Virus record (IMG/VR): IMGVR_UViG_3300025769_000070
Reading direction: 5' to 3' (one strand)
DNA: 64,000 nucleotides
Origin: a virus
Taxonomy: Duplodnaviria; Heunggongvirae; Uroviricota; Caudoviricetes
In this document: positions 37,078 to 50,043 of the stretch, one piece after another
How positions within the stretch are numbered: position 1 is the stretch's first letter
How the letters are laid out: each line of letters begins with the position of its first letter
Notes under the pieces: generated by a model
What the model was told of the DNA's origin: nothing
The model's input: the letters and a program-made list of their open reading frames with translations, nothing else
The model's database searches: none
Program-made: the position numbers and the translations under genes

Positions 37078-37288
37078 CGGGGTAGTAAGGGTGAGACAAT
37101 TTGGAGAGTGGTTTGGCGAATTTTGTTTGAACCCCCCCGGCCAACAGATTCCTACTACTCCCGAACAAATTACAAGATAAAACCCCCTGTCCTGTCCCCC
37201 TAAGTGTCCTGTCCGAAAATTCAAAAGAATTGAAAATTGATAAACCCTTTGGTAGTAACGACTTAGGTAAAAACCGAAAATTTACCTC

Positions 37289-37316
37289 TTGATAACAAGA
37301 ATCGCCAGCCTATAAT
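37289..37316 (+). promoter_or_regulatory. sigma70-type promoter (TTGATA-16-TATAAT) at start of early module
   Basis: Near-consensus hexamers with a 16-nt spacer, about 45 nt upstream of the first early gene. Confidence 0.5.
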
Positions 37317-37362
37317 TAGGTGCAAGACGGAAACGACACCAAAAACAAAGGAAAAAAGTAAG

Positions 37363-37587
37363 ATGATCACAGTTTGCCTCAATGATGGTCATGTAGTGTA
37401 CGAATTCAACACAGTCACTGAATTCGTCGATGCGTTCCCTGATGGTCTGGACCAGGACAATCTCGACCAGGGCTGTTATGTCAACTGTTCTATCCGTCAG
37501 GCTCAGGAAATAGCTTGGGAGCGAGAAGACCGGAAACGTCGATACAATACCAAGTTGCCATTCGTTGGTCAGCGTTGTCGAGACTAG
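37363..37587 (+). CDS. small early protein, paralog A
   Basis: 74 aa, about 88% identical to the 37995-38219 product (MI(T/K)VCL(N/K)DGHVVYEFNT...). Preceded by a GGA-rich leader. Confidence 0.55.
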   Translation: MITVCLNDGHVVYEFNTVTEFVDAFPDGLDQDNLDQGCYVNCSIRQAQEIAWEREDRKRRYNTKLPFVGQRCRD

Positions 37588-37662
37588 GCTTGACGTTGCT
37601 TGCCAGGTCTGATACAATCGGGCCTGGCTGTTTCCCACTGTCTGATCTCAAGGAATGTTTGA

Positions 37663-37899
37663 ATGCGAAAATCAGTATACCAACTGTCAGCAGGTGATGT
37701 TGTTCGCTGCTTCAATGGTACTGGTGATCAGGTTGTCAGTTGTACGGATATCGTACAACATAACAAGAAGAAGCGAATACTTGTTCTAGTGAACAAGAAG
37801 ACAGGGGTAAGGCGGCGTGTGGTATGGGGCTACTATACAAAGGTCTCCATGCAGCCCATCATTCCAAGTACTGCACCTGCGATCAGTATACGAAAGTGA
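37663..37899 (+). CDS. hypothetical small early protein
   Basis: 78-aa ORF with an AGGA SD; followed by palindrome GCCACTAGTGGC and leader element copy 1. Confidence 0.45.
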   Translation: MRKSVYQLSAGDVVRCFNGTGDQVVSCTDIVQHNKKKRILVLVNKKTGVRRRVVWGYYTKVSMQPIIPSTAPAISIRK

Positions 37900-37911
37900 G
37901 CCACTAGTGGC

Positions 37912-37971
37912 ACCGGCGGAAGCCGAGTCGTCTCACTCACCGCAGGTGTGAGTGAGCGAGACGCAACGGAA
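37912..37971 (+). repeat. conserved intergenic stem-loop/leader element, copy 1
   Basis: ACCGGCGGAAGCCGA-GTCGTCTCACTCAC-CGCAGGT-GTGAGTGAGCGAGAC-GCAACGGAA. Inverted repeat of 8 bp or more, followed by GGA motifs and an ATG about 25 nt downstream. Confidence 0.8.
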
Positions 37972-37994
37972 TAAAATCAACGGAGAATCGAGCG

Positions 37995-38219
37995 ATGATC
38001 AAGGTTTGCCTAAAAGATGGTCATGTAGTGTACGAATTCAACACCATCCCCGAATTTGTCGATGCATTCCCTGATGGCCTAGACCAGGAGAATCTGAACC
38101 AGGGCTGTTACGTGAACTGCACTATCCGTCAGGCTCAAGAGATTGCCTGGGAGCGTGAGGACAGGAAACGTCGATACAATACCAAGCTCCCATTCGTTGG
38201 TCAACGTTGCCGGGACTAG
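37995..38219 (+). CDS. small early protein, paralog B
   Basis: 74 aa, paralog of the 37363-37587 product. Confidence 0.55.
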   Translation: MIKVCLKDGHVVYEFNTIPEFVDAFPDGLDQENLNQGCYVNCTIRQAQEIAWEREDRKRRYNTKLPFVGQRCRD

Positions 38220-38275
38220 GGGCTAGGCTACGGGTTGCAACTTCCGCTTTCTTTTATTCAGGATGGAGTTCTAAA

Positions 38276-38500
38276 ATGAAGCCAATCACTCAGCGACCAA
38301 TCCCAGAGGGTTACACTACTGAATGGGATAACACTATCTGGAATGTGGGTATTGTTTTCCTGTGGTCAGATATTTTCGACGATTATTTGCAATGCGGTCG
38401 AATCACTGTGAAGCCCGGAGATACTTTGGCCGAAGCGTTCGAACGTGAAATGAATGAACCAATGTGGACAGAATTTGAAGTTTTCTTCGTCAACGAATAG
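38276..38500 (+). CDS. hypothetical small early protein
   Basis: ORF 38207-38500; probable start MKPITQRP with a GGATGGAG SD. Confidence 0.45.
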   Translation: MKPITQRPIPEGYTTEWDNTIWNVGIVFLWSDIFDDYLQCGRITVKPGDTLAEAFEREMNEPMWTEFEVFFVNE

Positions 38501-38505
38501 ACAGG

Positions 38506-38706
38506 ATGGAACCAGTGGACCCACGTATCACATATATGGCTATTTTCAATGCCATGTCAATCGGTGACTTCACAATGGCGAGAGTTCACGCCACCGACCT
38601 GAAAGAATGGTTGGACAAAGGTGGATTCTATCCCGACACCTATACAAAAGTGGAGGTGGACGCCTATCTCGCGAGCGTATTGAGACGTACAGTAGGGTAT
38701 GAATGA
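38506..38706 (+). CDS. hypothetical small early protein
   Basis: 66-aa ORF in the operon. Confidence 0.4.
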   Translation: MEPVDPRITYMAIFNAMSIGDFTMARVHATDLKEWLDKGGFYPDTYTKVEVDAYLASVLRRTVGYE

Positions 38707-38721
38707 TCAAAAGCGAAGGCG

Positions 38722-38790
38722 GTCGTGTTGCCCGTTCTTCGCCGGTCGTCCCACTCACAGCAGGTGTGAGTGAGCGGGACGCAACGGAAA
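38722..38790 (+). repeat. conserved intergenic stem-loop/leader element, copy 2
   Basis: ...GGTCGTCCCACTCACAGCAGGTGTGAGTGAGCGGGACGCAACGGAAAC.... ACGGAG then ATG follow downstream. Confidence 0.8.
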
Positions 38791-38814
38791 CAAAACACTA
38801 AACGGAGAACGGCG

Positions 38815-39027
38815 ATGCTTGACATCAAATTGACATCATACGAAAAGCGAATCATCGGCACACTGACCGATGAAGGGCACACACTTTATGTAACCGGAGA
38901 CGGTTGGATCTTTGAAGAATCTTGCGGAGATAAGCACACTTTCCAGTCTTTTCGAAAGTTCTTTGAGTTCTGCGAGTATCGTGAGTCGCAATTGCTGCTC
39001 GTGCGAGAAATGCAGGAGACTTTTTAA
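38815..39027 (+). CDS. hypothetical small early protein
   Basis: MLDIKLTSYEK...; the start follows element copy 2 and a GGAGAACGG SD. Confidence 0.45.
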   Translation: MLDIKLTSYEKRIIGTLTDEGHTLYVTGDGWIFEESCGDKHTFQSFRKFFEFCEYRESQLLLVREMQETF

Positions 39028-39057
39028 ATAACGCCCTTTAGACGGAGATTGAAGAGA

Positions 39058-39236
39058 TGAACGGACCAGAAGCAATCGAGTTTTTCGTAGCGAACGCAAA
39101 TGTCTACAACGAATGGTCAGAAGCTGCTATGTGGCAGCATGTCAGCCACGTCGTTAGAAAATCCCACAAAGAACCAAATCGGGTCTGGACAGTGGAAGAA
39201 CTATCCGCTATGATAGCACAAGCGGAGAACCAGTAA
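39058..39236 (+). CDS. hypothetical small protein (59 aa, below ORF-track cutoff)
   Basis: ATG preceded by GGAGATTGAAGAG. Reads MNGPEAIEFFVANANVYNEW.... Confidence 0.35.
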
Positions 39237-39251
39237 CCCATATGCGAGGTA

Positions 39252-39321
39252 CGGGTGTGTTACCCGTGCTTCGCGGGTCGTCTCACTCACCGCAGGTGTG
39301 AGTGAGCGAGACGCAACGGAA
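39252..39321 (+). repeat. conserved intergenic stem-loop/leader element, copy 3
   Basis: ...GGGTCGTCTCACTCACCGCAGGTGTGAGTGAGCGAGACGCAACGGAAAAC.... Followed by AAGGACGGAAACG then ATG. Confidence 0.8.
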
Positions 39322-39349
39322 AACAACTCAAAACAAAAGGACGGAAACG

Positions 39350-39478
39350 ATGGACGATTTCGATGATGTGACGTGTGAAGAGTTTTTCGACGACGAAAAG
39401 TATTACCGCAGTGTGCCAGATGCTGAGTTTGAGCAATCGGTTCCCTTCTCGTATCAGGTATCACTTTTCTTCGAATAA
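39350..39478 (+). CDS. hypothetical acidic mini-protein (42 aa)
   Basis: MDDFDDVTCEEFFDDEKYY...; the ATG follows element copy 3 and an AAGGACGGAAACG SD. Confidence 0.3.
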   Translation: MDDFDDVTCEEFFDDEKYYRSVPDAEFEQSVPFSYQVSLFFE

Positions 39479-39482
39479 CCGC

Positions 39483-39510
39483 TTGACATTCTCTGTCAAT
39501 GGGCTACAAT
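39483..39510 (+). promoter_or_regulatory. sigma70-type promoter (TTGACA-16-TACAAT)
   Basis: Consensus -35 box and 16-nt spacer. Confidence 0.5.
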
Positions 39511-39551
39511 CCACTTCTCAAACGGAAACTGTCTTTTAGAAGGAAAACACT

Positions 39552-39848
39552 ATGTCGCACACAATCTTCGAAAACGCTTTTGGTAAGATTTCCCATGAAG
39601 TTCGAAGGGATTATGTTATCTCTGATGAAGAACTGTTCGGGATGGTCAGCCGGGACTTCTACAAATCCTTGAACAATCCAGAAGTGACGGGAACGAAATC
39701 AATGCTCAAAAGTCTGGCAAAAGAACAAGGCCAGGTTGTGGAAGAAACACCAGAAGAAATTGCGATTCGCGAAGCAATGGAACGTGAGCAGAGGATTCTT
39801 GCCCATATCAGACGGGTTCAAATCGAATTGCAATGCTGTGAAGATTGA
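39552..39848 (+). CDS. hypothetical small early protein
   Basis: 98-aa ORF preceded by a GAAGGAAAACACT SD. Confidence 0.45.
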   Translation: MSHTIFENAFGKISHEVRRDYVISDEELFGMVSRDFYKSLNNPEVTGTKSMLKSLAKEQGQVVEETPEEIAIREAMEREQRILAHIRRVQIELQCCED

Positions 39849-39901
39849 AGATTGAAGATTGAAGAGGACGGAAACAATCCCCAGAAAAGAAGGAAAGAAC
39901 G

Positions 39902-40066
39902 ATGAAAGACGCTGAACGCCTGATGATCATCCGTGCCCTGGCATTAAATTGTCGGGACAACGCAAAGAATGGGGCAGATGAGGACAATCGTCCACTTCTG
40001 GACCTGATCCATGAGTTAGCGTTTCAGATGGATGTTGAGTACACAAATTTTTCGCTGGGGGAGTAA
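39902..40066 (+). CDS. hypothetical small protein (54 aa)
   Basis: ATG preceded by GAAGGAAAGAACG. Reads MKDAERLMIIRAL.... Confidence 0.35.
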   Translation: MKDAERLMIIRALALNCRDNAKNGADEDNRPLLDLIHELAFQMDVEYTNFSLGE

Positions 40067-40165
40067 TGCTAATAAACGCAATCCAAGACGCGACCCCCTA
40101 CGTAATTGGAACAGGTCTGTTCCTGTTCATAATGACACTTCTAGAAAAGAATGGAAGACTTTAGG

Positions 40166-40345
40166 ATGCTAGTACTGTCAAGAAAAAAAGACGAAAAGAT
40201 CACAATTCAGATTCCCGGAAAACCGGATATCGAAATCATGATCATCGAAACGGGCATCAAGACGCGGGTGGGGATTAAAGCTCCACAAGAATACCAGATC
40301 GTCAGAAACGAACTGATTGGAACGTCAAGAGGGCTTCCAAAATAG
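40166..40345 (+). CDS. csrA: carbon storage regulator CsrA homologue
   Basis: MLVLSRKKDEKITIQ...IMIIETGIKTRVGIKAPQEYQIVRNELI aligns to the CsrA/RsmA consensus MLILTRRxGE...V..GNQVRIGI.APKEV.V.REEI, with a short insertion. Confidence 0.8.
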   Translation: MLVLSRKKDEKITIQIPGKPDIEIMIIETGIKTRVGIKAPQEYQIVRNELIGTSRGLPK

Positions 40346-40437
40346 GTTTCTTGATATCGGTTCTTTGATATGGGGCGGGTGGGGAAATTGTCCCTGCCTG
40401 CCTTTATCTTTTACCAGAAAAATAGCCTGTCTGTTTT

Positions 40438-40497
40438 ACCGGCGGAAGCCGAGTCGTCTCACTCACCGCAGGTGTGAGTGAGCGAGACGCAGCGGAA
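40438..40497 (+). repeat. conserved intergenic stem-loop/leader element, copy 4
   Basis: ACCGGCGGAAGCCGAGTCGTCTCACTCACCGCAGGTGTGAGTGAGCGAGACGCAGCGGAA; about 60 nt near-identical to copy 1. Confidence 0.8.
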
Positions 40498-40616
40498 AAC
40501 AAGACACAAAGGAAAACCAAAAAGTCAGAATTTTCAGCTTGCAAGCCACAATGATTGTGTTACAATGCTCTCTCAATGGAACGGCGACCAACTTTTTCTT
40601 TCATGGGGATGAACGA

Positions 40617-41879
40617 ATGACTAAATGGATCAAGATGCACAATGATGGTGAATTCGACGTTATTACCGCAATTGGTATGCTGGGGGCGTCGGTGAAGATG
40701 GGTGAAGATCCCATTGGTCTCTATGGTTCTGGTATCAAGTACGCTATGGCTCAGGCTTTGCGTATGGGTATCTCGCTGAAGATTTCCGACAAGGGAAATC
40801 TGTACACTCTCACGTCCTTCGAAACTGAGTTTCGGGGGCGACAATTTCAAAGTGTCGGTCTCAAGACAAAGACCGGAAAGATCCATAAAACTGGAATCAC
40901 TACTGATTTCGGTAAAGAAGACTGGACAGATATTTGGTTCATCTTCCGCGAATTTTATTCGAACTGCCTTGATGAAGGCGGATTTCTGGAAATCGTGGAC
41001 GGTATACAAACCAGCGAGTCAGGCGTTGACGTTTTTATCCCGTATACTCCATTCAAGGAAATCGTTGATAACCTGAGTGATTACTTTTGTCCTAAAGATT
41101 TTAAGCTAAAAGTCGGCACGGGACGAGTATTCAAAAAGGGAGTATGGGTTGGGAATATGTCGGTCGATACAGGCTTGGACTTCCAGTCTGATTACATCGA
41201 AATTACTGAAACCCGAACGCTCAACCAATATTGTGCTTGGAGGCGTTTAGAAGGCATTATCGAAAGCTACGCAGAAAAAGAACATTTGGTCGAACTGCTC
41301 AAGCATGAAGAATGTTGGACAGAAATGCCGAACCTATGGTTGTGCGGCGAGAAATGCGAGGAGCATTTGCACGCAGCCCTAGTCGAAGTATATGGCAAAG
41401 ATTATATGATCTGTCCAAATGTGGATTGGATTATCAAAGATGCCATAGAAGTCTACGGAAGGAATCCGGTAGTATTTCCATCGGAATGGAAATTGCCAAC
41501 ATCAAAAATTCAAACGATGCAAGATCTGGCGAATAGTATCATCTTCCGCGATGCGACAGAAGCAGAGCAAAAAGTCATTGATAAAGGAATGAAGGCTTTA
41601 GCATGGATGGACGATGTTCCTAATCCTTTTGATTCCCTTTATAGTGTCAGGATAAAAGACATCAAAGTCAGAATCCTGAAGACAGACGAGAATTGTGGCG
41701 GATTGGCTAAACAAGGTTCCACCGAAATTGCCATCAATTCATCAGTGGTGAGCGGAGATTTTAAGAAGTTTTTGCAAACCCTGATGCACGAGTGCGTTCA
41801 CGCCATCACTGGCGAACAAGACTATACCAGAGGATTCGCTAGCTTCATGGAAAGAGCTTTAGTGTCCTTCTCTGTTTGA
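40617..41879 (+). CDS. hypothetical protein with C-terminal HExxH (metallopeptidase-like) motif
   Basis: ORF 40539-41879; probable start MTKWIKMH with a GGGGA SD. LMHECVHAITGEQDY. A G-rich GLYGSGIKYA motif is also present. Confidence 0.45.
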   Translation: MTKWIKMHNDGEFDVITAIGMLGASVKMGEDPIGLYGSGIKYAMAQALRMGISLKISDKGNLYTLTSFETEFRGRQFQSVGLKTKTGKIHKTGITTDFGKEDWTDIWFIFREFYSNCLDEGGFLEIVDGIQTSESGVDVFIPYTPFKEIVDNLSDYFCPKDFKLKVGTGRVFKKGVWVGNMSVDTGLDFQSDYIEITETRTLNQYCAWRRLEGIIESYAEKEHLVELLKHEECWTEMPNLWLCGEKCEEHLHAALVEVYGKDYMICPNVDWIIKDAIEVYGRNPVVFPSEWKLPTSKIQTMQDLANSIIFRDATEAEQKVIDKGMKALAWMDDVPNPFDSLYSVRIKDIKVRILKTDENCGGLAKQGSTEIAINSSVVSGDFKKFLQTLMHECVHAITGEQDYTRGFASFMERALVSFSV

Positions 41880-42112
41880 TTCCATCCCCGTGGATTGAGT
41901 GGCGGGCATGATGCCCGCTGCTCAATATTTTGACTGGAGGCGAAATGTTCTGCATGTATCTTTCACCGGCAGGAAAACAATTCAATAGAATTGTAAGGGT
42001 TACTGGCGAAGTCGCCGTATGTATTGCGACAGGAAAGAAACGGTTCATTGACCCGATGTTTCTGAGACCAACAGTTTCCGCAGATTGGCAACTCTGAGAT
42101 AAAGGGCTTGAA

Positions 42113-42134
42113 GAGGCCGCTACGGAGCGGCCTC
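42113..42134 (+). terminator. GC-rich hairpin (member of repeated GGCCGCTACGGAGC family), terminator-like
   Basis: GAGGCCGCT-ACGG-AGCGGCCTC, a 9-bp stem. No clean U tract follows. Confidence 0.35.
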
Positions 42135-42205
42135 TGAGGGCCGCTCTGATGTAGACTAACCTGTACGGATGATCGAACAATCTTTGATAATTAAGCTCAA
42201 TTAAG

Positions 42206-42233
42206 TTGCAATGGTCTGCCGATATGATATACT
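42206..42233 (+). promoter_or_regulatory. sigma70-type promoter (TTGCAA-16-TATACT), TTGCAATGG family
   Basis: Shares the TTGCAATGG...GTGACATGAG architecture with the promoters at 44071 and 45353. Confidence 0.45.
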
Positions 42234-42296
42234 AGTGACATGAGACGCGGGGGCAATCAGCCCAACACGGGGTTTTTTCTTCAAAGGAGAATTGTG

Positions 42297-43193
42297 ATGC
42301 AGAATGTTCTTTCAAGTGACGTTGCTGAAACAGTCAAAAAAGAGTTCGATTTCCAGGTCAACAAGTTCCCCTTGTCTGGTCCCGATGGAATGAAGACTCC
42401 CTGTTATGGTCTGTTCCGGTCTGACAATGCGTCTTTCGTTGGTTCTTGCAACAATGCCAAAAGTCGGAACTATATTCCACACCAGACTGACGATGTCATT
42501 GCTCTGGTTGAAGCGTCTTCCACGCTGTTTGATGGTGAAGTCGATGTCACCTGTTTCTTCAATCAGGGGCACTATGTGTCCGTTCAACCAACAATGGACA
42601 AACGCAAAGCCGTGTTCGGCCAAAAGGATAACGTCTTCCCGCGAATCATTATTAACGCGGGATATGATGGTCAGGCTTTCAAAGCGAACATGGGCTACTA
42701 TCGTGACGTTTGCAAGAATCTGAGTATCATGAGAATGGTCAAAGGTACGACTGTTTCGATTCGTCACATGAGCAACCTACGCTCCGAGATGGATGAATTG
42801 ATTGAAACGTTCGGCGTTCTTGGCGAATCGTGGGAAGCTCTGGGGCAAAGAATTGATGCTCTTGAACAAACCAAAGTCTCTTTGGTAGGATTCCTGGAAG
42901 ATGTTTTTGGACCAGTCCCAGAAGAAACGGGACGGGGAAAAACGGTCGCGGAAAATCGTATTGAGAAGATTGTTGGTCGTCTTCTCAACGAACGATTCAA
43001 AACGGGACGACCATTGAGTGAAGGCGTGGCCCCGGAATATTCTGGATGGGAGCTTGCAAATGCTGTGCAGGGATATACTCAACATGATAAGCCCCGGCAT
43101 GGTAATCCTACTGAGTTTCAACGTGCTATCATGGCAATGAATGATCAACACGTCAATAAAGCATTCGAATTGCTTTTATCAATGAGTGCTTAG
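42297..43193 (+). CDS. DUF932-like (phage/plasmid-like) protein
   Basis: ORF 42240-43193; probable start MQNVLSS with an AAGGAGA SD. Reads ...CYGLFRSDN...HQTDDVIALVEA...IIINAGYDGQAFKANMGYYRDVCKNL..., recalled DUF932 signatures. Confidence 0.5.
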   Translation: MQNVLSSDVAETVKKEFDFQVNKFPLSGPDGMKTPCYGLFRSDNASFVGSCNNAKSRNYIPHQTDDVIALVEASSTLFDGEVDVTCFFNQGHYVSVQPTMDKRKAVFGQKDNVFPRIIINAGYDGQAFKANMGYYRDVCKNLSIMRMVKGTTVSIRHMSNLRSEMDELIETFGVLGESWEALGQRIDALEQTKVSLVGFLEDVFGPVPEETGRGKTVAENRIEKIVGRLLNERFKTGRPLSEGVAPEYSGWELANAVQGYTQHDKPRHGNPTEFQRAIMAMNDQHVNKAFELLLSMSA

Positions 43194-44170: not shown

Positions 44171-44458
44171 ATGAAAGACATTATGGTTGGCGGATTCTTT
44201 GTTCTTTTTATTATTGGGGCATTGTTTATTGGTGCAACTAATGTACCACTAGAGCAAGAACCACCAACAGAGCTTCAACAACTACAAACTGAGGTGCGGT
44301 CTTTACGCAACGACCTGAACCAGTTAATCCTTGCATTGCCCGAAGATCCGACCATCATTGTAGATGGTCAAGTGGTAGACGAACATTTTGACTGGAACGT
44401 GTTTCATAACGTGCCGGGGAAAACAGATGATCAAAAAACCAGCGTTTTACCAGATTGA
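44171..44458 (+). CDS. small membrane-anchored protein
   Basis: N-terminal TM helix GGFFVLFIIGALFIGA; Q/L-rich. Confidence 0.45.
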   Translation: MKDIMVGGFFVLFIIGALFIGATNVPLEQEPPTELQQLQTEVRSLRNDLNQLILALPEDPTIIVDGQVVDEHFDWNVFHNVPGKTDDQKTSVLPD

Positions 44459-44837
44459 CCAGTGGAACATGCTTTCACTACTGGAACCGTTTCAAAAGGT
44501 GGACGTATACCGGAACTTGACTTCTGGTCTGTGGAGTGTCAGGCAGAATGGGATTGTTATACTACACGCTGAGTGTATAGCAATTTACAACCCCGAATTT
44601 ATCGTCAGTCAAAAGGGAAGGGCGAGGGTAATTCGGGAACAAAAGAAATACATCCATGCTTATGTTCGGGGCTTTCCTACATTTTTATCTGGGAAAAGGA
44701 CAGGGCCAGTTAATCCAACGGTTTTGACTTATAATCCCTACATTCACGAGAGTTTTGTGGACGAACGGGGGAATCCGGTATATAATGCTGGCATGTGTGT
44801 GTTGCGTCCGGATCATAAAGTTGAGGTAGTCAGATGA
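44427..44837 (+). CDS. hypothetical protein
   Basis: ORF 44388-44837; likely start MIKKPAFYQ with a GGGGAAAACAG SD. Confidence 0.4.
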   Translation: MIKKPAFYQIDQWNMLSLLEPFQKVDVYRNLTSGLWSVRQNGIVILHAECIAIYNPEFIVSQKGRARVIREQKKYIHAYVRGFPTFLSGKRTGPVNPTVLTYNPYIHESFVDERGNPVYNAGMCVLRPDHKVEVVR

Positions 44838-45003
44838 ATGAATATTGGGTAATCATGAAGGCGGCAGGTATTCAACCCTCTTACGTGTATGGTCCATTCA
44901 CATATCAAGAGGCCAGAAAAGAGTATGACCGGCGAACTGATCTGTACGAACAAAACAACCGGGAATTCACAATTCGATTGACAAAGACCGAAATTCTGGC
45001 GTA
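44836..45003 (+). CDS. hypothetical mini-protein (55 aa)
   Basis: ATGA start/stop overlap with the upstream gene. Reads MNEYWVIMKAAGIQPSYVYGPFTYQEARKEY.... Confidence 0.3.
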
Positions 45004-45266
45004 AGCCAGTTGGTATGAGAAAGCTCCTCATACTGTAAAGTGGTAAACGGTGAAGCACGGTCCACTATAATAAAACGGGGTTTCACCATACAATATGGAG
45101 TAGGGGCCACTATTGATAACTGTGGCAGTCAGACCGCAATATCTGACCGGGTTTGCTTTCTTCTTTTCTAGGGAGATTTAAGCACAGAAGAGTAATTAAC
45201 TTCTGAATACCCATGCGGGTTCAATTCCCGCCTACTCCTGCCTTATTCTTTTACTAGGCCGCTACG

Positions 45267-45288
45267 GAGCAGCCGCTGGCGGCTGCTC
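45267..45288 (+). terminator. GC-rich hairpin (GGCCGCTACGGAGCAGCCGCTGGCGGCTGCTC family)
   Basis: GAGCAGCCG-CTGG-CGGCTGCTC, a 9-bp stem. Confidence 0.35.
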
Positions 45289-45352
45289 TGATGCGTGTAT
45301 TCCAGTGAACGTATGTCTTTCTGTTCTTTTTCGGTTTTCTCAAGGTTGGTGC

Positions 45353-45380
45353 TTGCAATGGACGATAACTATAGTATAAT
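45353..45380 (+). promoter_or_regulatory. sigma70-type promoter (TTGCAA-16-TATAAT), TTGCAATGG family
   Basis: TTGCAATGGACGATAACTATAGTATAATGGTGACATAAGAG. Confidence 0.5.
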
Positions 45381-45461
45381 GGTGACATAAGAGACAACGG
45401 GAAAAAAAGCAGAATGGACATTATGACTCAGCAAGCAATTCCATTTGGGGGATGATTCGGC

Positions 45462-45758
45462 ATGAAAAAATATCAACTACGCAATCAGTTAGACTCATCC
45501 AAAACTAGGATACGTGAACTGGAAGCTCAATTAGTTCATCAGCATCATTTTGCTGATGCTAACATCGACAAATGTTCTACTGAGAAATTGTTGGGTTCTG
45601 CTGTCATCCTGGAATTAACTGCTTTAGGTGGCAGAACTATTGTAGCACCTATTGCTATAAGTGACGGGCTATCTCTAGAGACAATTGAAGCATTGAAGGC
45701 CGACATATGCCGATCCTACAAGAATCGTGTTGAGTTCAAACCAAAGGGGATGGAATGA
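45462..45758 (+). CDS. hypothetical protein
   Basis: 98-aa ORF with a GGGGGATGATTCGGC SD region. Confidence 0.45.
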   Translation: MKKYQLRNQLDSSKTRIRELEAQLVHQHHFADANIDKCSTEKLLGSAVILELTALGGRTIVAPIAISDGLSLETIEALKADICRSYKNRVEFKPKGME

Positions 45759-45988
45759 GATCGAAGCCTGTTCCTCACCACACTTTTCCCGGTGGGTATC
45801 CAATGTTCTACTACGTGAAGTCAGATGATGGTCACCTACACAGTTGCCCATCATGTGTCAATCAGAATCGTGTGGGTAGGAATGTGACGAAAGTTGAAGG
45901 TCACATTAACTATGAGGACGACAGTCTAACTTGTGATGTTTGTGAAAAGCGGATAGAATCCGCCTATGGGAGGGAGAATGAAAACTGA
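45755..45988 (+). CDS. zinc-ribbon small protein
   Basis: CPSC...CDVC cysteine pairs. ATGA overlap with the upstream gene. Confidence 0.45.
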   Translation: MRSKPVPHHTFPGGYPMFYYVKSDDGHLHSCPSCVNQNRVGRNVTKVEGHINYEDDSLTCDVCEKRIESAYGRENEN

Positions 45989-46199
45989 AGTTTGGTATCA
46001 ATGGAAAGAATTGATCGAAGGGCGATTGGTTGATGCCGAGTCTAATCCAATGCATAGCGAGACTCCTATAGGCGATTTTCTATTTGATTCACCGGAAGAT
46101 GCGAGGGATTACCTTGACGAATCCTTTGAAGACGAAGTCAAACCGGACTGGATTCTTGTTCGCACAACTTATGATCCCATAGGGGGTTACAATGGCTAA
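45978..46199 (+). CDS. hypothetical acidic protein
   Basis: ORF 45966-46199; probable start MKTEVW after a GGGAGGGAGA SD. Confidence 0.4.
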   Translation: MKTEVWYQWKELIEGRLVDAESNPMHSETPIGDFLFDSPEDARDYLDESFEDEVKPDWILVRTTYDPIGGYNG

Positions 46200-46242
46200 T
46201 AAAAAGAAAAGGCAGGTTTTTAACTAAAATCGCCAAAATACC

Positions 46243-46270
46243 TTGAAATCTCTCTGAGACATGGTACAAT
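46243..46270 (+). promoter_or_regulatory. sigma70-type promoter (TTGAAA-16-TACAAT)
   Basis: Hexamers with a 16-nt spacer. Confidence 0.4.
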
Positions 46271-46567
46271 TGACACAGCGGTGATCTAGTGATGACGATT
46301 ACAATATGATCACCAATGTTGGCTTGACCGCCAGTGTTTGACCGGCAACACAAAAAGTCCGTCTGAGATGTTTCCCAGTTCTTTAAGCTAGACGTTAAAC
46401 GATAGAATGTGGCGTAGAATGTTATAATAGTGTTCACCAGGTTCTGAATCTTTTACAACGTCAGAGAAAGATAAATGATCCGGCGTGTCAACGAAAGTTG
46501 TTAAATTGTTCCACTGCGGTGAGTTCAAACACGTAATCTATCAGTTTTGGTCGTTTACTGAGGTAAC

Positions 46568-46652
46568 AACTAAACGGCCACAGGGGATTTGGTGTATTTG
46601 GTAACACGCCGCTATTTAAGCGAGGCACATCGGTTCGATTCCGATTTTAGTT
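46568..46652 (+). other. tRNA-like element (class-II-like, non-canonical anticodon arm)
   Basis: Perfect 7-bp acceptor pairing AACTAAA/TTTAGTT. T-arm ATCGG-TTCGATT-CCGAT. D-arm GCCA...TGGT with GG. The anticodon arm has only a GTGT/ACAC stem with an 8-nt loop. Confidence 0.3.
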
Positions 46653-46673
46653 TGGAACGCCTGAAATTGAGAA

Positions 46674-46699
46674 GTGAGGTTCGAATCCTTACAATCCCA
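46674..46699 (+). other. tRNA 3'-half-like fragment (T-arm GGTTCGAATCC + acceptor-like tail)
   Basis: TGAGG-TTCGAAT-CCTTA then CAATCCCA. No matching 5' half at tRNA distance. Confidence 0.25.
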
Positions 46700-46718
46700 T
46701 TTGGTATCCTGATTTTGC

Positions 46719-46746
46719 TTGACTGTTCGTGTCAACGTGGTACAAT
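46719..46746 (+). promoter_or_regulatory. sigma70-type promoter (TTGACT-16-TACAAT)
   Basis: Upstream of the gene at 46811. Confidence 0.45.
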
Positions 46747-46810
46747 TCGCATATGAAAAACGTGCTCATCACAGCACTGATTTTGGGCTTCCTTTTGGAG
46801 TGGTTTAGAG

Positions 46811-47086
46811 ATGAAGATTAGCAGAGCAAAAGCGTTAAAACTTATTAAGGCTTCTAACGGGAAGACTTTTGGAGTTGGTTTCATTAAAAAGAACGGGGAG
46901 CAAAGGAATATGAATGCCCGTCTGGGTGTTAAAAAGGGAGTTATTGGTGTGGGGATGAAATACGATCCATCAGAACATGATTTGATCACCGCTTTCGATA
47001 TGAAGAAAGACGGTTTTCGTATGATCAACCTTAACACTCTTTTCAGACTTTCAACCAAAAAGAAAACTTACGAAATCGTAGATTAG
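46811..47086 (+). CDS. hypothetical basic protein
   Basis: 91-aa ORF with a GGAGTGG SD. Confidence 0.45.
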   Translation: MKISRAKALKLIKASNGKTFGVGFIKKNGEQRNMNARLGVKKGVIGVGMKYDPSEHDLITAFDMKKDGFRMINLNTLFRLSTKKKTYEIVD

Positions 47087-47091
47087 GGGGG

Positions 47092-47316
47092 ATGGTGGAA
47101 GAAGAACTTGAAGAAATCAGAGAAAGAATAAAAAGGCAGCACCTTAACTATCTATGGCAAGAAGATCACATGATGGAAATCATCATGCAAATTTGTCGAG
47201 AACAGGATGATGATCGAGAAGCTGTTAAAAATGTTATCAAGTCTACTATCTCTTTGGCATATTCGACAGGAGCCGCTGACGCCACTGAGATGACTATTGA
47301 ATTACTCAATAAATAG
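47092..47316 (+). CDS. hypothetical acidic protein
   Basis: 74-aa ORF with an AGGGGGG SD. Confidence 0.45.
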   Translation: MVEEELEEIRERIKRQHLNYLWQEDHMMEIIMQICREQDDDREAVKNVIKSTISLAYSTGAADATEMTIELLNK

Positions 47317-47328
47317 GATCAGATTGAA

Positions 47329-47362
47329 GCCTCAGATTGCATCAGTAATCTGGGGCTTTTTT
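47329..47362 (+). terminator. rho-independent terminator
   Basis: CAGATTGCATCAGTAATCTG hairpin followed by GGGGCTTTTTTG. Confidence 0.4.
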
Positions 47363-47381
47363 GTATTCATAGGGTGCAACA

Positions 47382-47411
47382 GAGCAGCCGCTGGCGGCTG
47401 CTCGTTTGTGT
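47382..47411 (+). terminator. GC hairpin family member with U-rich tail
   Basis: GAGCAGCCGCTGGCGGCTGCTC followed by GTTTGTGT. Confidence 0.45.
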
Positions 47412-47464
47412 ATCTGCCTATACGGGTGAATTCGGCTATTTTTCACTTTTTAGACTTAAGACTA

Positions 47465-47492
47465 TTGCAATCAACTGTCGATATATTATAAT
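47465..47492 (+). promoter_or_regulatory. sigma70-type promoter (TTGCAA-16-TATAAT)
   Basis: TTGCAATCAACTGTCGATATATTATAATAGGGACATGAAG. Confidence 0.5.
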
Positions 47493-47538
47493 AGGGACAT
47501 GAAGGGGAGAGAACGAAACACTAAACGGGGGAGAGAGA

Positions 47539-47724
47539 ATGAAGTTTAGAGTGACAATGAAGAATCCTGATTGTGTGTCGCAGGCTATCGACGACGCCAT
47601 TGCTGATGATCCTCATCAGGAAGACGATATCAGATCAGCTATCTCTAGGTGGTTCAAATACGAGGATTATTTGGAAGTAGAGATTGACACTTCTGTCGGA
47701 ACTTGCGTGGTGATCAAACCATGA
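47539..47724 (+). CDS. hypothetical small protein
   Basis: 61-aa ORF with a GGGGGAGAGAGA SD. Confidence 0.4.
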   Translation: MKFRVTMKNPDCVSQAIDDAIADDPHQEDDIRSAISRWFKYEDYLEVEIDTSVGTCVVIKP

Positions 47725-47888
47725 ACAATCAAAGAGCTATACTTGAACAGTTGCGGGATGCGTTAGCGATTGTGTCTGAAGCGTATATCGAATGTCCACA
47801 TTGTGTTTGTGGGCCGGTATTGCAAGCCAAACAGAGTCTTGAGGATGCTGTCCATAGACTAGAAAAAAACATTGAAAGTTCAAACTAG
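47703..47888 (+). CDS. hypothetical small protein (CxxC...CxC)
   Basis: 61-aa ORF overlapping the upstream gene by 22 nt. Confidence 0.4.
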   Translation: MRGDQTMNNQRAILEQLRDALAIVSEAYIECPHCVCGPVLQAKQSLEDAVHRLEKNIESSN

Positions 47889-47921
47889 TAAAAAGGAAGG
47901 CAGATTAACGCAAGAAAACAC

Positions 47922-47949
47922 TTGACACGGCCAGTAACTAAGTTATAAT
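47922..47949 (+). promoter_or_regulatory. sigma70-type promoter (TTGACA-16-TATAAT)
   Basis: Perfect consensus hexamers. Confidence 0.55.
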
Positions 47950-47978
47950 ACGGAAGTCAACTCACACGGGGGAAAACG

Positions 47979-48722
47979 ATGATTACATTTTCAGAAGCGA
48001 ACAGTAAACTCAAAAAATTGCAAGCCGTTACTGGTCGAACTGTTTTCAGCTTCGACCTATTGTCGGGGCACACTTGTCCCGGTGCGAAGGATTGTTTCAC
48101 CAAAGTTGTTTATGATTGGCTGACAGATACTTATTCGCTGTTCGATGGTCCTGATCAGGAGTTTCGTTGTTACGCTGCAAGCCAAGAGCAACAATATACA
48201 GGCGTTTACAATAAGCGTCTCGAAAACTGGACTATCCTGGAAAGAATGTCCAGTCCGAACATAATGGCAGCAGCTATTGAAGCTGCTATGCCTAGTCACG
48301 CGGCGACTATTCGGATTCATTCAGGCGGCGACTTCTTTAGTATGTCTTATTTCAAGGCATGGATACTTGTTGCCAAACGCAACCCGCTAAAAAGATTCTA
48401 TGCGTACACTAAGTTTCTGCCAGCATGGGTTAAATTTATGGGGATTATTCCCGCAAATTTAATTCTGACGGCATCGCGTGGTGGGCGTTATGATCATCTG
48501 ATCGACAAACACGGTCTGAGAGAAGCTAAGGTGATCTATGACGAGTCTGAGGCTAACGGTCTGGCGATTGATGTTGACGATTCTATTGCCGCCGATCCTG
48601 ATCGGAGAAATGAGGATTTCTGTCTGCTGATCCACGGACAAGGGCAAGCGGGTTCTGATCAGGCAAAGATTCACAGTGAACTAACACGGGCAAAACGAAA
48701 CGCCAAACTAATCTCTAACTAG
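47979..48722 (+). CDS. hypothetical protein (GHTCPGAKDC motif)
   Basis: 247-aa ORF with a GGGGGAAAACG SD. Confidence 0.5.
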   Translation: MITFSEANSKLKKLQAVTGRTVFSFDLLSGHTCPGAKDCFTKVVYDWLTDTYSLFDGPDQEFRCYAASQEQQYTGVYNKRLENWTILERMSSPNIMAAAIEAAMPSHAATIRIHSGGDFFSMSYFKAWILVAKRNPLKRFYAYTKFLPAWVKFMGIIPANLILTASRGGRYDHLIDKHGLREAKVIYDESEANGLAIDVDDSIAADPDRRNEDFCLLIHGQGQAGSDQAKIHSELTRAKRNAKLISN

Positions 48723-48735
48723 GGGGACCAAACCT

Positions 48736-49038
48736 GTGACTATTGAAGAACAAATTGCTGTAATGGACGCTTTCCGTAATGGGTTTTGTATTGATTCCCG
48801 CCTAAAATCCCCGCCGGGAGTTGTAAAGTCTTGCTGGTGCTGTAATGAGAGTCCGGGTTGGGATTGGGTTAACTATGAATATCGGGTTCGACCTGTGCCA
48901 AAAATTACTCGTCAAAATTTAATTGACGATATAATCACGGTGTGCCGCAATGCGGAGAATCGTATGTTAGCGGCGAACCACCGTCATGTTACTGGTAGCC
49001 AAGTTTTCTGGGATGAAGACGAATTCTCAGAAAACTAG
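48736..49038 (+). CDS. hypothetical Cys/Trp-containing protein
   Basis: 100-aa ORF. Confidence 0.45.
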   Translation: MTIEEQIAVMDAFRNGFCIDSRLKSPPGVVKSCWCCNESPGWDWVNYEYRVRPVPKITRQNLIDDIITVCRNAENRMLAANHRHVTGSQVFWDEDEFSEN

Positions 49039-49048
49039 AAGAAACGAC

Positions 49049-49076
49049 TTGCATTAGCTTTAGCTTATGCTATAAT
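49049..49076 (+). promoter_or_regulatory. sigma70-type promoter (TTGCAT-16-TATAAT)
   Basis: Hexamers with a 16-nt spacer. Confidence 0.45.
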
Positions 49077-49110
49077 TTGGAAAAGACCAGGCATGTGACC
49101 TGGCAACATT

Positions 49111-49464
49111 TTGACCGGGAACAAAGTTCCCCTTTTTGAAAAGAGGTTTGCTATGGAAGACACGACTTTTGTGGAAATGTGGATTGACACTCACGCTGAA
49201 GGTGGCACCATCAATGACATGGTTAAAAACTATCGTCAGGCGGTGCCGGAATGTACCGCGAGCGATGCAAGTCTGAAGACTGCACTCTCGACCCGAGCTA
49301 CTAAAATCAGGGCAGAACTGATTGCTCTGGGAAAAACTGAAGATGAAGTCACGAAACTCTTCCCAAAGTTCCCGCGAGCCACCAAAACCAAGCAGAATCT
49401 CCAGTCTGCTGTTGCCCGTATCCTTGAAATGGCAGGAGAAAAAGCTGAACCGGAAGGAGAATGA
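49111..49464 (+). CDS. hypothetical protein
   Basis: 117-aa ORF with an AAAGAGG SD. Confidence 0.45.
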   Translation: MTGNKVPLFEKRFAMEDTTFVEMWIDTHAEGGTINDMVKNYRQAVPECTASDASLKTALSTRATKIRAELIALGKTEDEVTKLFPKFPRATKTKQNLQSAVARILEMAGEKAEPEGE

Positions 49465-49556
49465 AAACACTCCTGATCATTGGATTTTGTGTAGGATTCA
49501 TGCTATCCTTCGTGTCTGATGAGTAGTTCAAGTGGGGGAGAAATCCCCCACTATTT

Positions 49557-49640
49557 GCGGGCGTGATGTAATTGGCAGCCATATTCCGCTTAAACCGGAA
49601 TGGGAACAATCCCGTGCAGGTTCGAATCCTGTCGCCCGTA
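49557..49640 (+). tRNA. tRNA-Leu(UAA), class II
   Basis: Acceptor GCGGGCG/CGCCCGT (G1-U72 wobble). 3-bp D stem ATG/CAT with GG in the loop. Anticodon stem TTCCG/CGGAA with loop CTTAAAC, giving anticodon UAA. Long variable arm GGGAACAATCCC. T-arm GCAGG-TTCGAAT-CCTGT. Discriminator A. Confidence 0.7.
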
Positions 49641-49692
49641 TTATAGTTGAAAACCTGGTAAAAAGACAAGGCCAAATAGGGGGAATCTTCTT

Positions 49693-49953
49693 ATGAGGAT
49701 TATTGAAGCCAGCTTATGTTTGAGATTTTACCGATCAAACGGCTGGACGCGAGAAGCCGTTCGGGAACTGTTATCCGATGATAAACGTCTGTCGCGAGTA
49801 TGTCCAAGGTATTTTGACGACCGTGACAGAGTTGGGGTAGAAGATGATCTGCCCCATGATGATTGTGATTACTTCGCAGTCTATGATTGTGGAGATCCAT
49901 TCTCAAAGGATGCAATCGCGAAACATGAACTGATACCGTTCATGCTGGGCTGA
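49693..49953 (+). CDS. hypothetical protein
   Basis: 86-aa ORF with an AGGGGGAATC SD. Confidence 0.4.
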   Translation: MRIIEASLCLRFYRSNGWTREAVRELLSDDKRLSRVCPRYFDDRDRVGVEDDLPHDDCDYFAVYDCGDPFSKDAIAKHELIPFMLG

Positions 49954-49969
49954 GGCTGATTCTTCCAAA

Positions 49970-50043
49970 GGCAAGAGGGGTTGTATTACCCCTTCTTGCC
50001 CGCTTCCGCAGCGTAGCTGCGGGTAATTGACCGTCTTTTTTCG
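49970..50043 (+). terminator. tandem hairpins + T-tract (end of GC-richer early module)
   Basis: GGCAAGAGGGG-ttgtatta-CCCCTTCTTGCC (11 bp), then CCGCAGC-gta-GCTGCGG, then TCTTTTTT. Confidence 0.5.

Follow-up and report, generated by a model that had tools for sequence, protein, structure and literature searches.

The early operon of phage T7 carries RNase III processing hairpins, and phage N4 has early promoters made of DNA hairpins. In most phages studied, early and late genes differ significantly in GC content and in codon and nucleotide bias (PMC5683454), and hyperplastic regions of T4-like phages contain promoter-early stem-loop (PeSL) cassettes (PMC2839356, PMC4122927). The block described here lies in a 64,000-nt stretch of a tailed phage genome (the window). 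Like the early regions of T4, T5 and T7, it is a one-strand block of many small ORFs served by strong sigma-70-type promoters, it departs from the late genes in both composition and codon usage, and phage tRNAs fit the codons of later genes. It differs in that the phage has no detectable sequence relationship to those phages, and its early timing is proposed from architecture.

Borders and composition of the block

An unconstrained two-change-point likelihood scan of the window gave maximum-likelihood borders of 36940–50060, with a GC content of 44.6% inside and 37.2% elsewhere. The earlier note, which had put the contrast at about 50% against 35%, was right about place and direction and overstated the size. 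The mean GC of 500-nt segments was 0.445 inside (sd 0.027, n = 26) and 0.372 outside (sd 0.036, n = 102; Mann–Whitney p = 1e-11), and values fall to 0.36–0.40 right past the end of the module at about 50.0 kb. GC skew changes sign at 37 kb, which reflects a strand switch, and a local dip at 43–44 kb (GC 0.41, negative skew) is due to a minus-strand endonuclease gene with a GC content of 0.39.

37078–50043, + strand: GC-richer, putatively early module (change-point, GC3, synteny in relatives)

The significant shift extends to codon usage, the other check that the earlier note had proposed. GC3 reaches 0.447 in module genes, compared with 0.257 for late genes and 0.322 for those downstream, and codon usage differs strongly (chi-square 724, 60 df). 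At two-fold sites C is favored over T in module codons with an odds ratio of 2.6 (p = 1e-26) and G over A with 1.35; at four-fold sites the rise in G exceeds that in C. Along the module, GC3 declines from the start onwards (Spearman rho −0.63, p = 3e-4). Non-coding DNA, full of hairpins and tRNA-like genes, makes up 29% of the module and has a GC content of 0.456, versus 0.329 in the late region.

Gene content and conservation among relatives

Module ORFs were picked by the analyst from the sequence. The earlier note had spoken of some 30 small ORFs; 28 ORFs were counted on the plus strand (24 of them shorter than 105 aa), and one further gene, an endonuclease, lies on the minus strand. The HNH_3 gene occupies the junction where module and late operon diverge; the first genes of that operon encode a sigma-70-region-2-like protein and a conserved 263-aa protein. 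A ligase gene follows downstream of the module.

36640–37077, + strand: HNH_3 endonuclease-like protein, 145 aa (PF13392, 28.2 bits, cut-off 24.8; phrog_99, 5e-13)
37341–38220, + strand: tandem gene duplication (248-nt direct repeat, 84% identical); 74-aa paralogues at 37363–37587 and 37995–38219 with a 78-aa ORF in between
40151–40345, + strand: CsrA-family RNA-binding regulator homologue, 64 aa (PF02599, 45.6 bits, cut-off 27; weak CsrA/RsmF/RsmN matches in the PDB, E = 0.003–0.006)
40617–41879, + strand: 420-aa protein (N-terminal phrog_8203, 1.5e-19; C-terminal HExxH, with a weak SprT-like match below cut-off, E = 0.0018)
42297–43193, + strand: DUF932 protein, 298 aa (PF06067, 56.9 bits, cut-off 23)
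43234–43854, − strand: strain-specific HNH/EndoVII-type endonuclease (phrog_3322, 5e-30; phrog_1035, 8e-24)
44469–44837, + strand: Mycobacteriophage L5 gp82-like protein, 122 aa (PF25735, 85.2 bits)
46811–47086, + strand: 91-aa protein (phrog_2267, 2e-17; weak WYL_2/Sm-like match below cut-off, PF10902, E = 5e-4)
47979–48722, + strand: GP88-family protein, 247 aa (PF17338, 115.9 bits)
49693–49953, + strand: final module ORF, 86 aa, GC 0.46 (ORF pick; kept in L008–L010)

The phage belongs to a lineage of abundant, uncultured tailed phages with genomes of roughly 115–170 kb, found in marine and other metagenomes; its presumed capsid protein and portal had no tblastn match in 50,697 GenBank phage records. 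The relatives compared were L008–L010 (98–99.8% nucleotide identity), L011, L013/L014, L007, L004–L006, L095 and L096, the last two being contigs for whose selection only the late 263-aa gene was used; module conservation was judged in those with enough sequence. The shared late junction (263-aa gene, sigma-like gene and HNH) adjoins the block in relatives as close as about 98% nucleotide identity and as distant as about 42% protein identity. L008 is collinear with the window over both borders (98.1% and 99.8% nucleotide identity). L011, L013/L014, L007 and L004–L006 have in common the junction genes, DUF932 (42–69%), GP88 (47%), the gp82-like gene (35–44%), the ~420-aa protein and CsrA, while L095 and L096 have HNH and small ORFs at the junction, with DUF932 and GP88 also present in L095.

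The 145-aa HNH_3 gene is found at the junction in L008, L011, L013, L095 and L096, its position and size are kept in most relatives, and a 47% identical homologue stands there in L004/L006. The modules of L008, L011, L012 and L013 include CsrA genes. DUF932 is the best-conserved module gene (42–94% identity in relatives; 741 metagenomic homologues), and in L004/L006 it is adjoined by homologues of the 420-aa protein with 24–31% identity. The gp82-like homologues are those of L004, L006 and L007, and the gene is absent from the 98%-identical strain L008; the GP88 homologues are in L004 and L007, and those of the 91-aa protein in L004, L008 and L011. Identities to L004 are 42% for DUF932, 47% for GP88 and 60% for the late 263-aa gene, and to L007 50%, 47% and 45%. 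For most small ORFs, no homologue was detected across lineages, and many indels separate near-identical strains. The endonuclease gene is absent from L008–L010, which carry a tRNA-Ile(tat) at its site; in the window it is bracketed by two 38-nt hairpin copies (43208–43245 and 43926–43963, repeat D6; −31 and −23 kcal/mol), giving a unit of 43208–43963. In one strain pair, the breakpoints of cassette swaps lie at common hairpins or promoters.

The GC excess of the module is 8.0 points in the window, 6.6 in L011, 4 to 8 in L013, 4.4 to 5.2 in L007, 3 in L004 and L006, 11.5 in L095 and 3.6 in L096. Scoring covered these genomes; L097, with 218 nt of module sequence at a GC content of 0.33, was set aside. 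Module GC spans 0.44–0.49 across lineages and backbone GC 0.36–0.45. The offset is kept throughout the lineage and is a property of the module.

Promoters, structured hairpins and tRNAs

At a threshold of at least 10 of 12 positions, sigma-70-like promoter matches number 12 on the module coding strand (13 kb), 4 in the late region (37 kb) and only 2 on the module non-coding strand. A repeat search showed that a 40-nt predicted promoter recurs in the module in four near-identical copies, and in three composites a hairpin precedes the promoter by about 45 nt.

37289–37316, + strand: first predicted module promoter, TTGATA-16-TATAAT (11/12), upstream of the first ORF
42098–42243, + strand: composite of hairpin 42098–42161 and predicted promoter TTGCAA-16-TATACT at 42204–42243 (repeat families D3 and D4)
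44068–44107, + strand: repeated putative early promoter TTGCAA-16-TACAAT, reference copy of family D4
45240–45390, + strand: composite of hairpin 45240–45303 and predicted promoter TTGCAA-16-TATAAT at 45351–45390 (repeats, promoter scan)
47355–47492, + strand: composite of hairpin 47355–47418 and predicted promoter TTGCAA-16-TATAAT at 47465–47492 (repeats, promoter scan)
47922–47949, + strand: predicted promoter with perfect consensus (12/12) ahead of the GP88 gene (unit 47922–48722)
49970–50023, + strand: two adjacent strong hairpins at the module end (−35.1 kcal/mol, z = −3.2), followed by a T-run at 50037–50042

A further repeat, the three-tier hairpin, covaries, is confined to the modules of this phage and its relatives, and had no match in Rfam. 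It stands in intergenic spaces, always on the coding strand, 25–37 nt 5′ of the next start codon, and unlike the composite hairpins it has no adjacent sigma-70 promoter. Copy 4 is preceded by a terminator-like hairpin (40372–40404) and followed by a promoter (40537–40576).

37927–37972, + strand: three-tier hairpin copy 1 (repeat family D2, exact core, covariance model R1, 59.8 bits)
38745–38790, + strand: copy 2 (compensatory change in the basal stem, CGTCCC/GGGACG)
39277–39322, + strand: copy 3 (repeat, core match, covariance model)
40453–40498, + strand: copy 4 (repeat, core match, covariance model)

The module also carries one canonical tRNA gene and three tRNA-like sequences.

43953–44030, + strand: non-canonical tRNA-like element with acceptor stem, T arm and anticodon-type loop CUUAUAA (UAU), read from the sequence
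45097–45240, + strand: 144-nt cloverleaf-like RNA with 8-bp acceptor stem, T arm and ~64-nt variable region
46567–46653, + strand: degenerate tRNA-like sequence (ARAGORN tRNA-Lys(ttt) at -ps90 only)
49556–49641, + strand: tRNA-Leu(UAA), reader of UUA/UUG (ARAGORN; Rfam RF00005, 47.2 bits)

The element at 43953 lacks a D arm and was not called by ARAGORN or Rfam; it is 90.8% identical to L011:11497–11572 within surroundings of about 65% identity, and both its acceptor stem and its T stem show compensatory changes. The cloverleaf-like RNA (MFE −53.8 kcal/mol, z = −5.1) was called by ARAGORN at relaxed settings only, and its sole Rfam match was to a tmRNA 3′ end (E = 0.0035). The degenerate sequence, whose fold is no better than that of shuffled sequences, occupies the position of a tRNA-Val(aac) in L011. 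L008 and L013 share the tRNA-Leu(UAA) in their modules, and the modules of relatives also hold Ile-UAU and Arg-UCU genes, in a variable phage tRNA set. Late genes exceed the module in TTA (36% vs 11% of Leu codons), ATA (32% vs 11% of Ile codons) and AGA (45% vs 19% of Arg codons); these AT-rich codons are the ones matched by the tRNAs Leu(UAA), Ile(UAU) and Arg(UCU) found among the modules of this phage and its relatives.

Origin of the module and comparison with known systems

With good confidence, we regard the block as an ancestral, conserved early module that the lineage keeps at a constant place, rather than as an island. Early expression and, probably, a role in host takeover, as had been suggested, fit the one-strand layout, promoter density, small ORFs, CsrA gene and downstream ligase. 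Transcription would run rightwards from the divergent junction, most likely by host sigma-70 RNA polymerase reading the block from its many near-consensus predicted promoters. Hairpin-plus-promoter cassettes and the lineage-specific three-tier hairpin would punctuate it as far as the hairpin pair near 50.0 kb. The genes for CsrA, the HExxH protein, DUF932, the gp82-like, GP88 and WYL_2-like proteins would form a conserved core among fast-turning-over small ORFs and phage tRNA genes; small ORFs lacking homologues between lineages may have entered from outside.

As a selective cause of the GC offset, the expression needs of early genes are a tentative proposal, to which we give slightly less than even weight. 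Early genes, expressed with unmodified host machinery, would most likely keep less AT-biased codons rich in C-ending ones, while middle and late genes would drift to UUA, AUA and AGA, which the module tRNAs would help to read. Translational selection alone is insufficient, because non-coding GC is also raised and four-fold sites gain more G than C; GC-rich structured non-coding elements would contribute to the excess.

The earlier note had suggested a horizontally acquired or moron island. The HNH, CsrA and DUF932 genes, the tRNA-Leu and the hairpins near 49970 that it named are all present (Pfam cut-offs passed, tRNA call, folds). Members of the DUF932 family are also known from ICEs and plasmids. 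A recently acquired island derived from an ICE, plasmid or prophage and inserted beside a tRNA gene would account for the real GC and codon shift with sharp borders, and the distinct composition, DUF932 gene and nearby tRNA do recall tRNA-associated islands and ICEs. Yet the block is syntenic and GC-shifted in all relatives examined, across their whole range of divergence, and its proteins matched no integrase or recombinase family among Pfam and phrog profiles. The plasmid-database search gave no similarity for the module DNA or the DUF932 protein, no ICE similarity was seen either, and a repeat search found no copy of the tRNA end at the opposite border and no att-like repeats. The tRNA, near the border as claimed, does not form the edge of the module: about 400 nt inward of it, on the transcribed strand, it is followed by the final ORF and the terminal hairpins, and it belongs to the variable phage set instead of marking an integration site. 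Conservation and synteny among relatives, which the earlier note had itself named as refuting, refute the island and tRNA-integration readings; we consider such an island highly improbable.

Two other accounts concern the offset itself. The module could stem from a gene pool shared with or inherited from higher-GC phages, by ancient chimerism or ongoing cassette influx through recombination at repeated hairpin/promoter motifs rather than expression selection. Its near-constant GC against more variable backbones, the largely unrelated small ORFs, the strain-level swaps, and matches to L5 gp82, GP88 and Microbacterium-phage DUF932, families best known from high-GC actinophages, speak for this; we nevertheless find it unlikely, since core and late genes have diverged to a broadly similar extent (L004 and L007), no recent core-gene transfer between lineages was seen, and an offset lasting over such divergence argues for equilibrium and not for incomplete amelioration. 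Somewhat less likely still is a by-product of another mutational or recombinational regime, such as GC-biased gene conversion or dense GC-rich structured elements. Non-coding DNA as GC-rich as coding DNA, its large hairpin- and tRNA-like-rich share and the numerous indels between near-identical strains agree with that, whereas coding GC3 alone rises by 19 points, and unequally for pyrimidine- and purine-ending codons, an asymmetry that uniform GC-biased conversion does not predict.

Compared with T4, T5 and T7, the size of the offset here (GC3 +19 points) and its lineage-wide conservation are computational findings. The three-tier hairpin resembles the T7 RNase III hairpins and N4 promoters in being repeated in intergenic spaces of a putative early operon on the coding strand. 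It differs in its ~14-bp stem, conserved apical mini-stem, 3′ ‘GA’ bulge and 3′ ‘CNGAA’ tail, in having no G–U pairs (0 in 178 cells), and in standing, in relatives, immediately 3′ of an intrinsic-terminator-like hairpin; no virion RNA polymerase was seen within the window. PeSL cassettes differ in having no sequence homology to the module motifs, whose terminator and promoter activities are predictions, and from the three-tier hairpin in its having no adjoining sigma-70 promoter. The composites nevertheless resemble them as repeated stable stem-loops joined to strong sigma-70-like promoters in an ORFan-rich region, and the insertions and replacements between strains, bounded by common hairpins or promoters, suggest from the breakpoints of one strain pair a similar recombination.

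Composition and gene content of the block

The earlier note had placed a compositionally distinct block at about 37-50 kb, and a likelihood scan given no prior coordinates returned 36940-50060 as the best inner segment (log-likelihood gain 120), so the proposed borders were accurate. The 1-kb profile of the window gives a GC content of 0.41-0.48 over 37-50 kb and mostly 0.32-0.42 elsewhere; the sign of the GC skew switches at 37 kb, and GC falls immediately beyond the hairpins at the end of the block. This block, the module, is GC-richer as claimed, but the contrast of ~50% with ~35% was overstated: the measured values are 0.446 within the segment and 0.372 in the rest of the window. Both the sliding GC and the codon-usage check proposed for it show a significant shift (Mann-Whitney p = 1e-11 over 500-nt windows; chi-square 724 with 60 df between codon tables). 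Third codon positions shift most: GC3 is 0.447 in the module (28 ORFs), 0.257 in the late region (25 ORFs) and 0.322 in the downstream ORFs. GC dips at 43-44 kb over an HNH/EndoVII-type endonuclease gene on the minus strand. A second GC-raised patch at 54124-55768 is a 1.6-kb array of ~135 copies of the 12-nt tandem repeat TACACTCGCAGT (70% matches), which also gives rise to spurious low-complexity minus-strand ORFs; possible functions are those of an origin, an array of binding sites or a packaging signal.

The genes and structures named for the block (HNH, CsrA, DUF932, tRNA-Leu and terminal hairpins) were all recovered by profile searches, ARAGORN and folding.

Recognisable features of the module and its left border
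36640-37077: HNH_3 gene, profile match
40151-40345, plus strand: CsrA gene, PF02599 at 45.6 bits (gathering 27), profile positions 1-48 of 53
42297-43193, plus strand: DUF932 gene, PF06067 at 56.9 bits (gathering 23)
49556-49641: tRNA-Leu(taa), ARAGORN call, Rfam RF00005 at 47.2 bits (gathering 29)
49970-50023: two strong hairpins and then a T-run, closing the module, from fold and sequence

By our own ORF picks the module carries 28 plus-strand ORFs, 24 of them shorter than 105 aa. The CsrA homologue can be aligned by eye with E. coli CsrA, its N-terminal MLVLSRK matching L2/L4/R6 and the arginine of its C-terminal VRNE matching R44. The other recognisable products are a 420-aa protein (phrog_8203) with HExxH in its C-terminal part, an L5-gp82-like protein, a phrog_2267 / WYL_2-like protein and GP88. 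PDB sequence searches with DUF932, GP88 and the 420-aa protein gave no usable match, and a literature search on the function of DUF932 yielded nothing useful. A 74-aa early gene is tandemly duplicated (37341-37588 and 37973-38220), the copies being 84% identical in nucleotides and flanking a single ORF; the duplication is also present in the close relative L008.

To the left of the module, the minus strand encodes structural and packaging proteins, including the large terminase, a tail-fibre protein, a homing endonuclease and GDP-mannose dehydratase. This late operon starts, next to the module, with genes for a 160-aa protein, whose relatives show a weak Sigma70_r2 match, and a 263-aa protein. 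The presumed capsid protein (23606-24616) has no PHROG match; in relatives its gene comes after that for a cement/decoration protein. It adjoins the homing endonuclease gene (21914-23524, 536 aa; phrog_3339, 1.7e-70), which sits inside the structural block. The large terminase gene (28633-31716) contains a LAGLIDADG intein that is missing from the ~660-aa homologue of the relative L001. Sugar-nucleotide genes occupy 60387-63997 and 33630-34718 on the minus strand, where GDP-mannose 4,6-dehydratase is a Pfam match and the others (epimerase-like, GHMP-kinase-like and cytidylyltransferase-like) were assigned by eye from translations; they suggest phage modification of cell-surface polysaccharide. 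The dehydratase has an intein of its own in some relatives (L095:10789-13029 and L011:1-2312; Intein_splicing / LAGLIDADG matches, products of 746-789 aa) and none in the window. To the right of the module, the plus strand continues with AT-rich genes, including one for an ATP-dependent DNA ligase.

Conservation of the block in uncultured relatives

Megablast with the module DNA found no match in GenBank phages or in plasmids, and tblastn with the presumed capsid protein and the portal found none among phages, so that no cultured relative can be named. IMG/VR scans with the 420-aa protein, DUF932 or GP88 singly also returned no relatives; it was the late 263-aa gene, and after it the DUF932 of a relative, that led to them. 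Metagenomic homologues are plentiful, with 741 for DUF932, 1,475 for the 263-aa late protein and more than 5,000, Tara Oceans included, for the presumed capsid protein. Three contigs (L008-L010) are 98-99.8% identical to the window and collinear over both module borders. The more distant lineages (DUF932 identity: L011 69%, L013/L014 53%, L007 50%, L004-L006 42%) all share one layout: late genes on one strand and, on the diverging strand, an HNH gene followed by small ORFs, the HNH being missing at the L007 junction. A core of CsrA, the ~420-aa protein, DUF932, gp82-like, GP88 and WYL_2-like genes is conserved in partly shuffled order; detection was incomplete, and not each gene was found in each lineage. 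Three further contigs were chosen through the late 263-aa gene alone to guard against circularity. The junction of L095 is followed by HNH, small ORFs, a 400-aa protein, DUF932 and GP88, that of L096 by HNH and eleven small ORFs up to the contig end, and that of L097 by HNH and then the contig end. None of the relatives examined has an empty junction.

GC content of the module and its flanks in the window and its relatives
Window: module 0.446; flanks 0.366 and 0.363
L011: module 0.437; flank 0.371
L013: module 0.461; flanks 0.42 and 0.38
L007: module 0.444; flanks 0.40 and 0.392
L004: module 0.482; flank 0.452
L006: module 0.477; flank 0.446
L095: module 0.490; flank 0.375
L096: module 0.445; flank 0.409

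The compositional offset is kept throughout the lineage: backbone GC varies, while module GC stays nearly constant. This refutes the proposal that a tRNA anchors a horizontally acquired island here, since the block is present, and GC-shifted, in all relatives with enough sequence; far from being absent or non-syntenic, it is collinear in L008-L010 and present in the more distant relatives. The tRNA at the module end had been read as an integration signature, but tRNA-Leu lies inside the block and the tRNAs of relatives occupy other module positions. A search of 36500-50500 for repeats gave no att-like copy of the tRNA 3' end that would connect 49.6 kb to 37 kb. Neither Pfam nor PHROGs indicates an integrase or recombinase among the 28 module ORFs and the minus-strand ORF, where the only nucleases are of HNH type. 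The expected similarity to plasmids and ICEs was likewise not borne out, as module megablast and DUF932 tblastn gave no match in 72,556 plasmids. We therefore consider it likely that the block is a conserved early region of an abundant uncultured phage lineage and not an island. The module is an ordinary kind of feature within an undescribed phage, with some RNA or DNA elements that merit separate attention. A sharp GC or codon island beside a tRNA in a phage genome need not be foreign, and the present case guards against that common mis-call. The family concerned is plentiful in metagenomes and lacks cultured members.

Codons, tRNAs and the cause of the offset

The modules of relatives carry tRNAs for Ile(tat), Arg(tct), Leu(taa), Glu(ttc), Cys and Val. 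The first three read ATA, AGA and TTA, which are enriched in late genes relative to module genes (32% against 11%, 45% against 19% and 36% against 11% of the respective codon shares); this is the usual logic of phage tRNAs and not the signature of an attachment site. At two-fold sites the module favours C over T (odds ratio 2.6, p = 1e-26) and, to a much lesser degree, G over A (odds ratio 1.35). GC3 is lower the farther a gene lies from the start of the module (rho -0.63, p = 3e-4), with a mean of 0.50 in the first eleven genes and 0.42 in the remaining ones. The C-over-T bias and the GC3 gradient would fit selection linked to expression at a very early stage, when the host machinery is still unmodified. 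Such selection is not the sole cause of the offset: non-coding DNA is also GC-rich (0.456 in the module against 0.329), and at four-fold sites the gain in G exceeds that in C, which argues for a contribution of structured elements and possibly also of another recombination or mutation regime. An effect of strand or replication is ruled out as the cause of the GC excess, the downstream plus-strand genes being AT-rich.

Early and late genes have been reported to differ significantly in GC and nucleotide bias in most phages examined (PMC5683454), so the difference seen here is known in kind. The lineages compared add a multi-lineage example in which composition follows inferred expression timing and is linked to phage tRNAs that read AT-rich codons. 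On this hypothesis early genes would be host-like and late genes would rely on phage tRNAs. In one scan of genome contigs GDP-mannose dehydratase gave no host signal, with ~40-44% identity to many phyla.

Structured elements and strain turnover

A 46-nt structured element, the three-tier hairpin, is present in four copies, all within the first 3.5 kb of the module and nowhere else in the window.

Copies of the three-tier hairpin in the window (coding strand)
37927-37972
38745-38790
39277-39322
40453-40498

The hairpin is common to the window, L011, L013/L014, L004 and L006, with 4 to 13 copies per genome, all intergenic and on the coding strand. In the window, L011 and L013 its basal stem has 5-7 bp and is separated by one A-C or G-C position from a middle stem of 4-5 bp; an apical stem of 3-4 bp closes on a small loop, and a 3' bulge ends in GA. 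CNGAA is conserved a few bases 3' of the stem, and the next start codon follows each copy by 25-37 nt. Over these three lineages 92% of cells are paired, against 73% when shuffled and 29-51% with slid pairing; eight of the 12 pairs changed on both sides, and there are no G-U pairs. The covariation is seen inside single genomes as well as from one lineage to another. A covariance model from the same lineages (R1) matched modules only, on the coding strand only, with no copy in the window outside the module or in late-region loci; it did not recover the divergent versions of L004, L006 and L007, whose kinship is proposed from manual comparison. The L004/L006 version is simpler (9-13 copies per locus); pairing in its main helix reaches 99.4%, four positions being fully compensatory, and each copy lies directly 3' of an intrinsic-terminator-like hairpin, as does the L013 element. 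Rfam (E <= 1, 34-54 kb) matched only the tRNA and not the three-tier hairpin.

That the element is a new class of phage regulatory signal, as opposed to an ordinary terminator, is a tentative and rather doubtful proposal. It may serve for RNA processing or stabilisation or for the binding of a protein, possibly in connection with the CsrA homologue of the module, or it may be a structure-dependent promoter that a non-host or modified RNA polymerase recognises. A coding-strand A-C position corresponds to G-T on the template strand, which together with the lack of G-U pairs makes a role at the DNA level possible.

Three non-canonical elements (43953-44030, 45097-45240 and 46567-46653) have no tRNA call at default ARAGORN or Rfam thresholds and appear only at relaxed ARAGORN settings. 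In the one at 43953-44030 the acceptor stem is joined by a T arm, a variable region of 19 nt and the anticodon-type loop CUUAUAA (UAU, Ile), and there is no D arm; it is 91% conserved in L011:11497-11572, where adjoining DNA is ~65% identical, with compensatory changes in the acceptor and T stems. That at 45097-45240 is a cloverleaf-like RNA of 144 nt (MFE -53.8 kcal/mol, z = -5.1); its acceptor stem has 8 bp, its 'anticodon' loop 8 nt, its T arm is canonical and its ~64-nt variable region holds two hairpins. Of the databases' entries, just the tmRNA 3' end matches it, and weakly. The covarying hairpin and these odd tRNA-like genes are leads to new phage RNA or DNA signals.

Closely related strains differ inside the module. 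In the window, 43208-43963 holds the opposite-strand HNH/EndoVII-type endonuclease gene with a copy of a 38-nt hairpin on each side, next to a tRNA-like element; at the same place the 98%-identical L008 (10900-11190) has a canonical tRNA-Ile(tat) and a hairpin. The exchanged segment (window 43238-44050) has a shared hairpin as its left limit and a shared promoter as its right limit in the one strain group compared, and is a strain-specific cassette replacement. L008 also has two unrelated ORFs in place of the gp82-like gene, and individual small genes are missing from L010. A 170-aa gene of L008 considered as a diverged gp82 was rejected on comparison.

Promoters are frequent here. Sigma-70-like matches of at least 10/12 number 12 on the plus strand of the module (13 kb), two on its minus strand and four in the late region (37 kb), and 36-51.5 kb contains 43 promoter-like sites against 26.8 +/- 4.8 in shuffles. 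This coding-strand enrichment is as expected of an early phage transcription unit that host sigma-70 RNA polymerase would read. One 40-nt promoter (repeat family D4) is present in four copies within the module, and three times (42098-42243, 45240-45390 and 47355-47492) a GC-rich hairpin (family D3) lies ~45 nt upstream of it. A repeated stable stem-loop with a sigma-70-like promoter in an ORFan-rich variable region, which is what characterizes a PeSL-type cassette, is thus present in the module. PeSL cassettes have been described in the hyperplastic regions of T4-like phages (PMC2839356, PMC4122927), and the shuffling that they mediate there resembles the strain-level swaps of the module, by analogy and not by homology.
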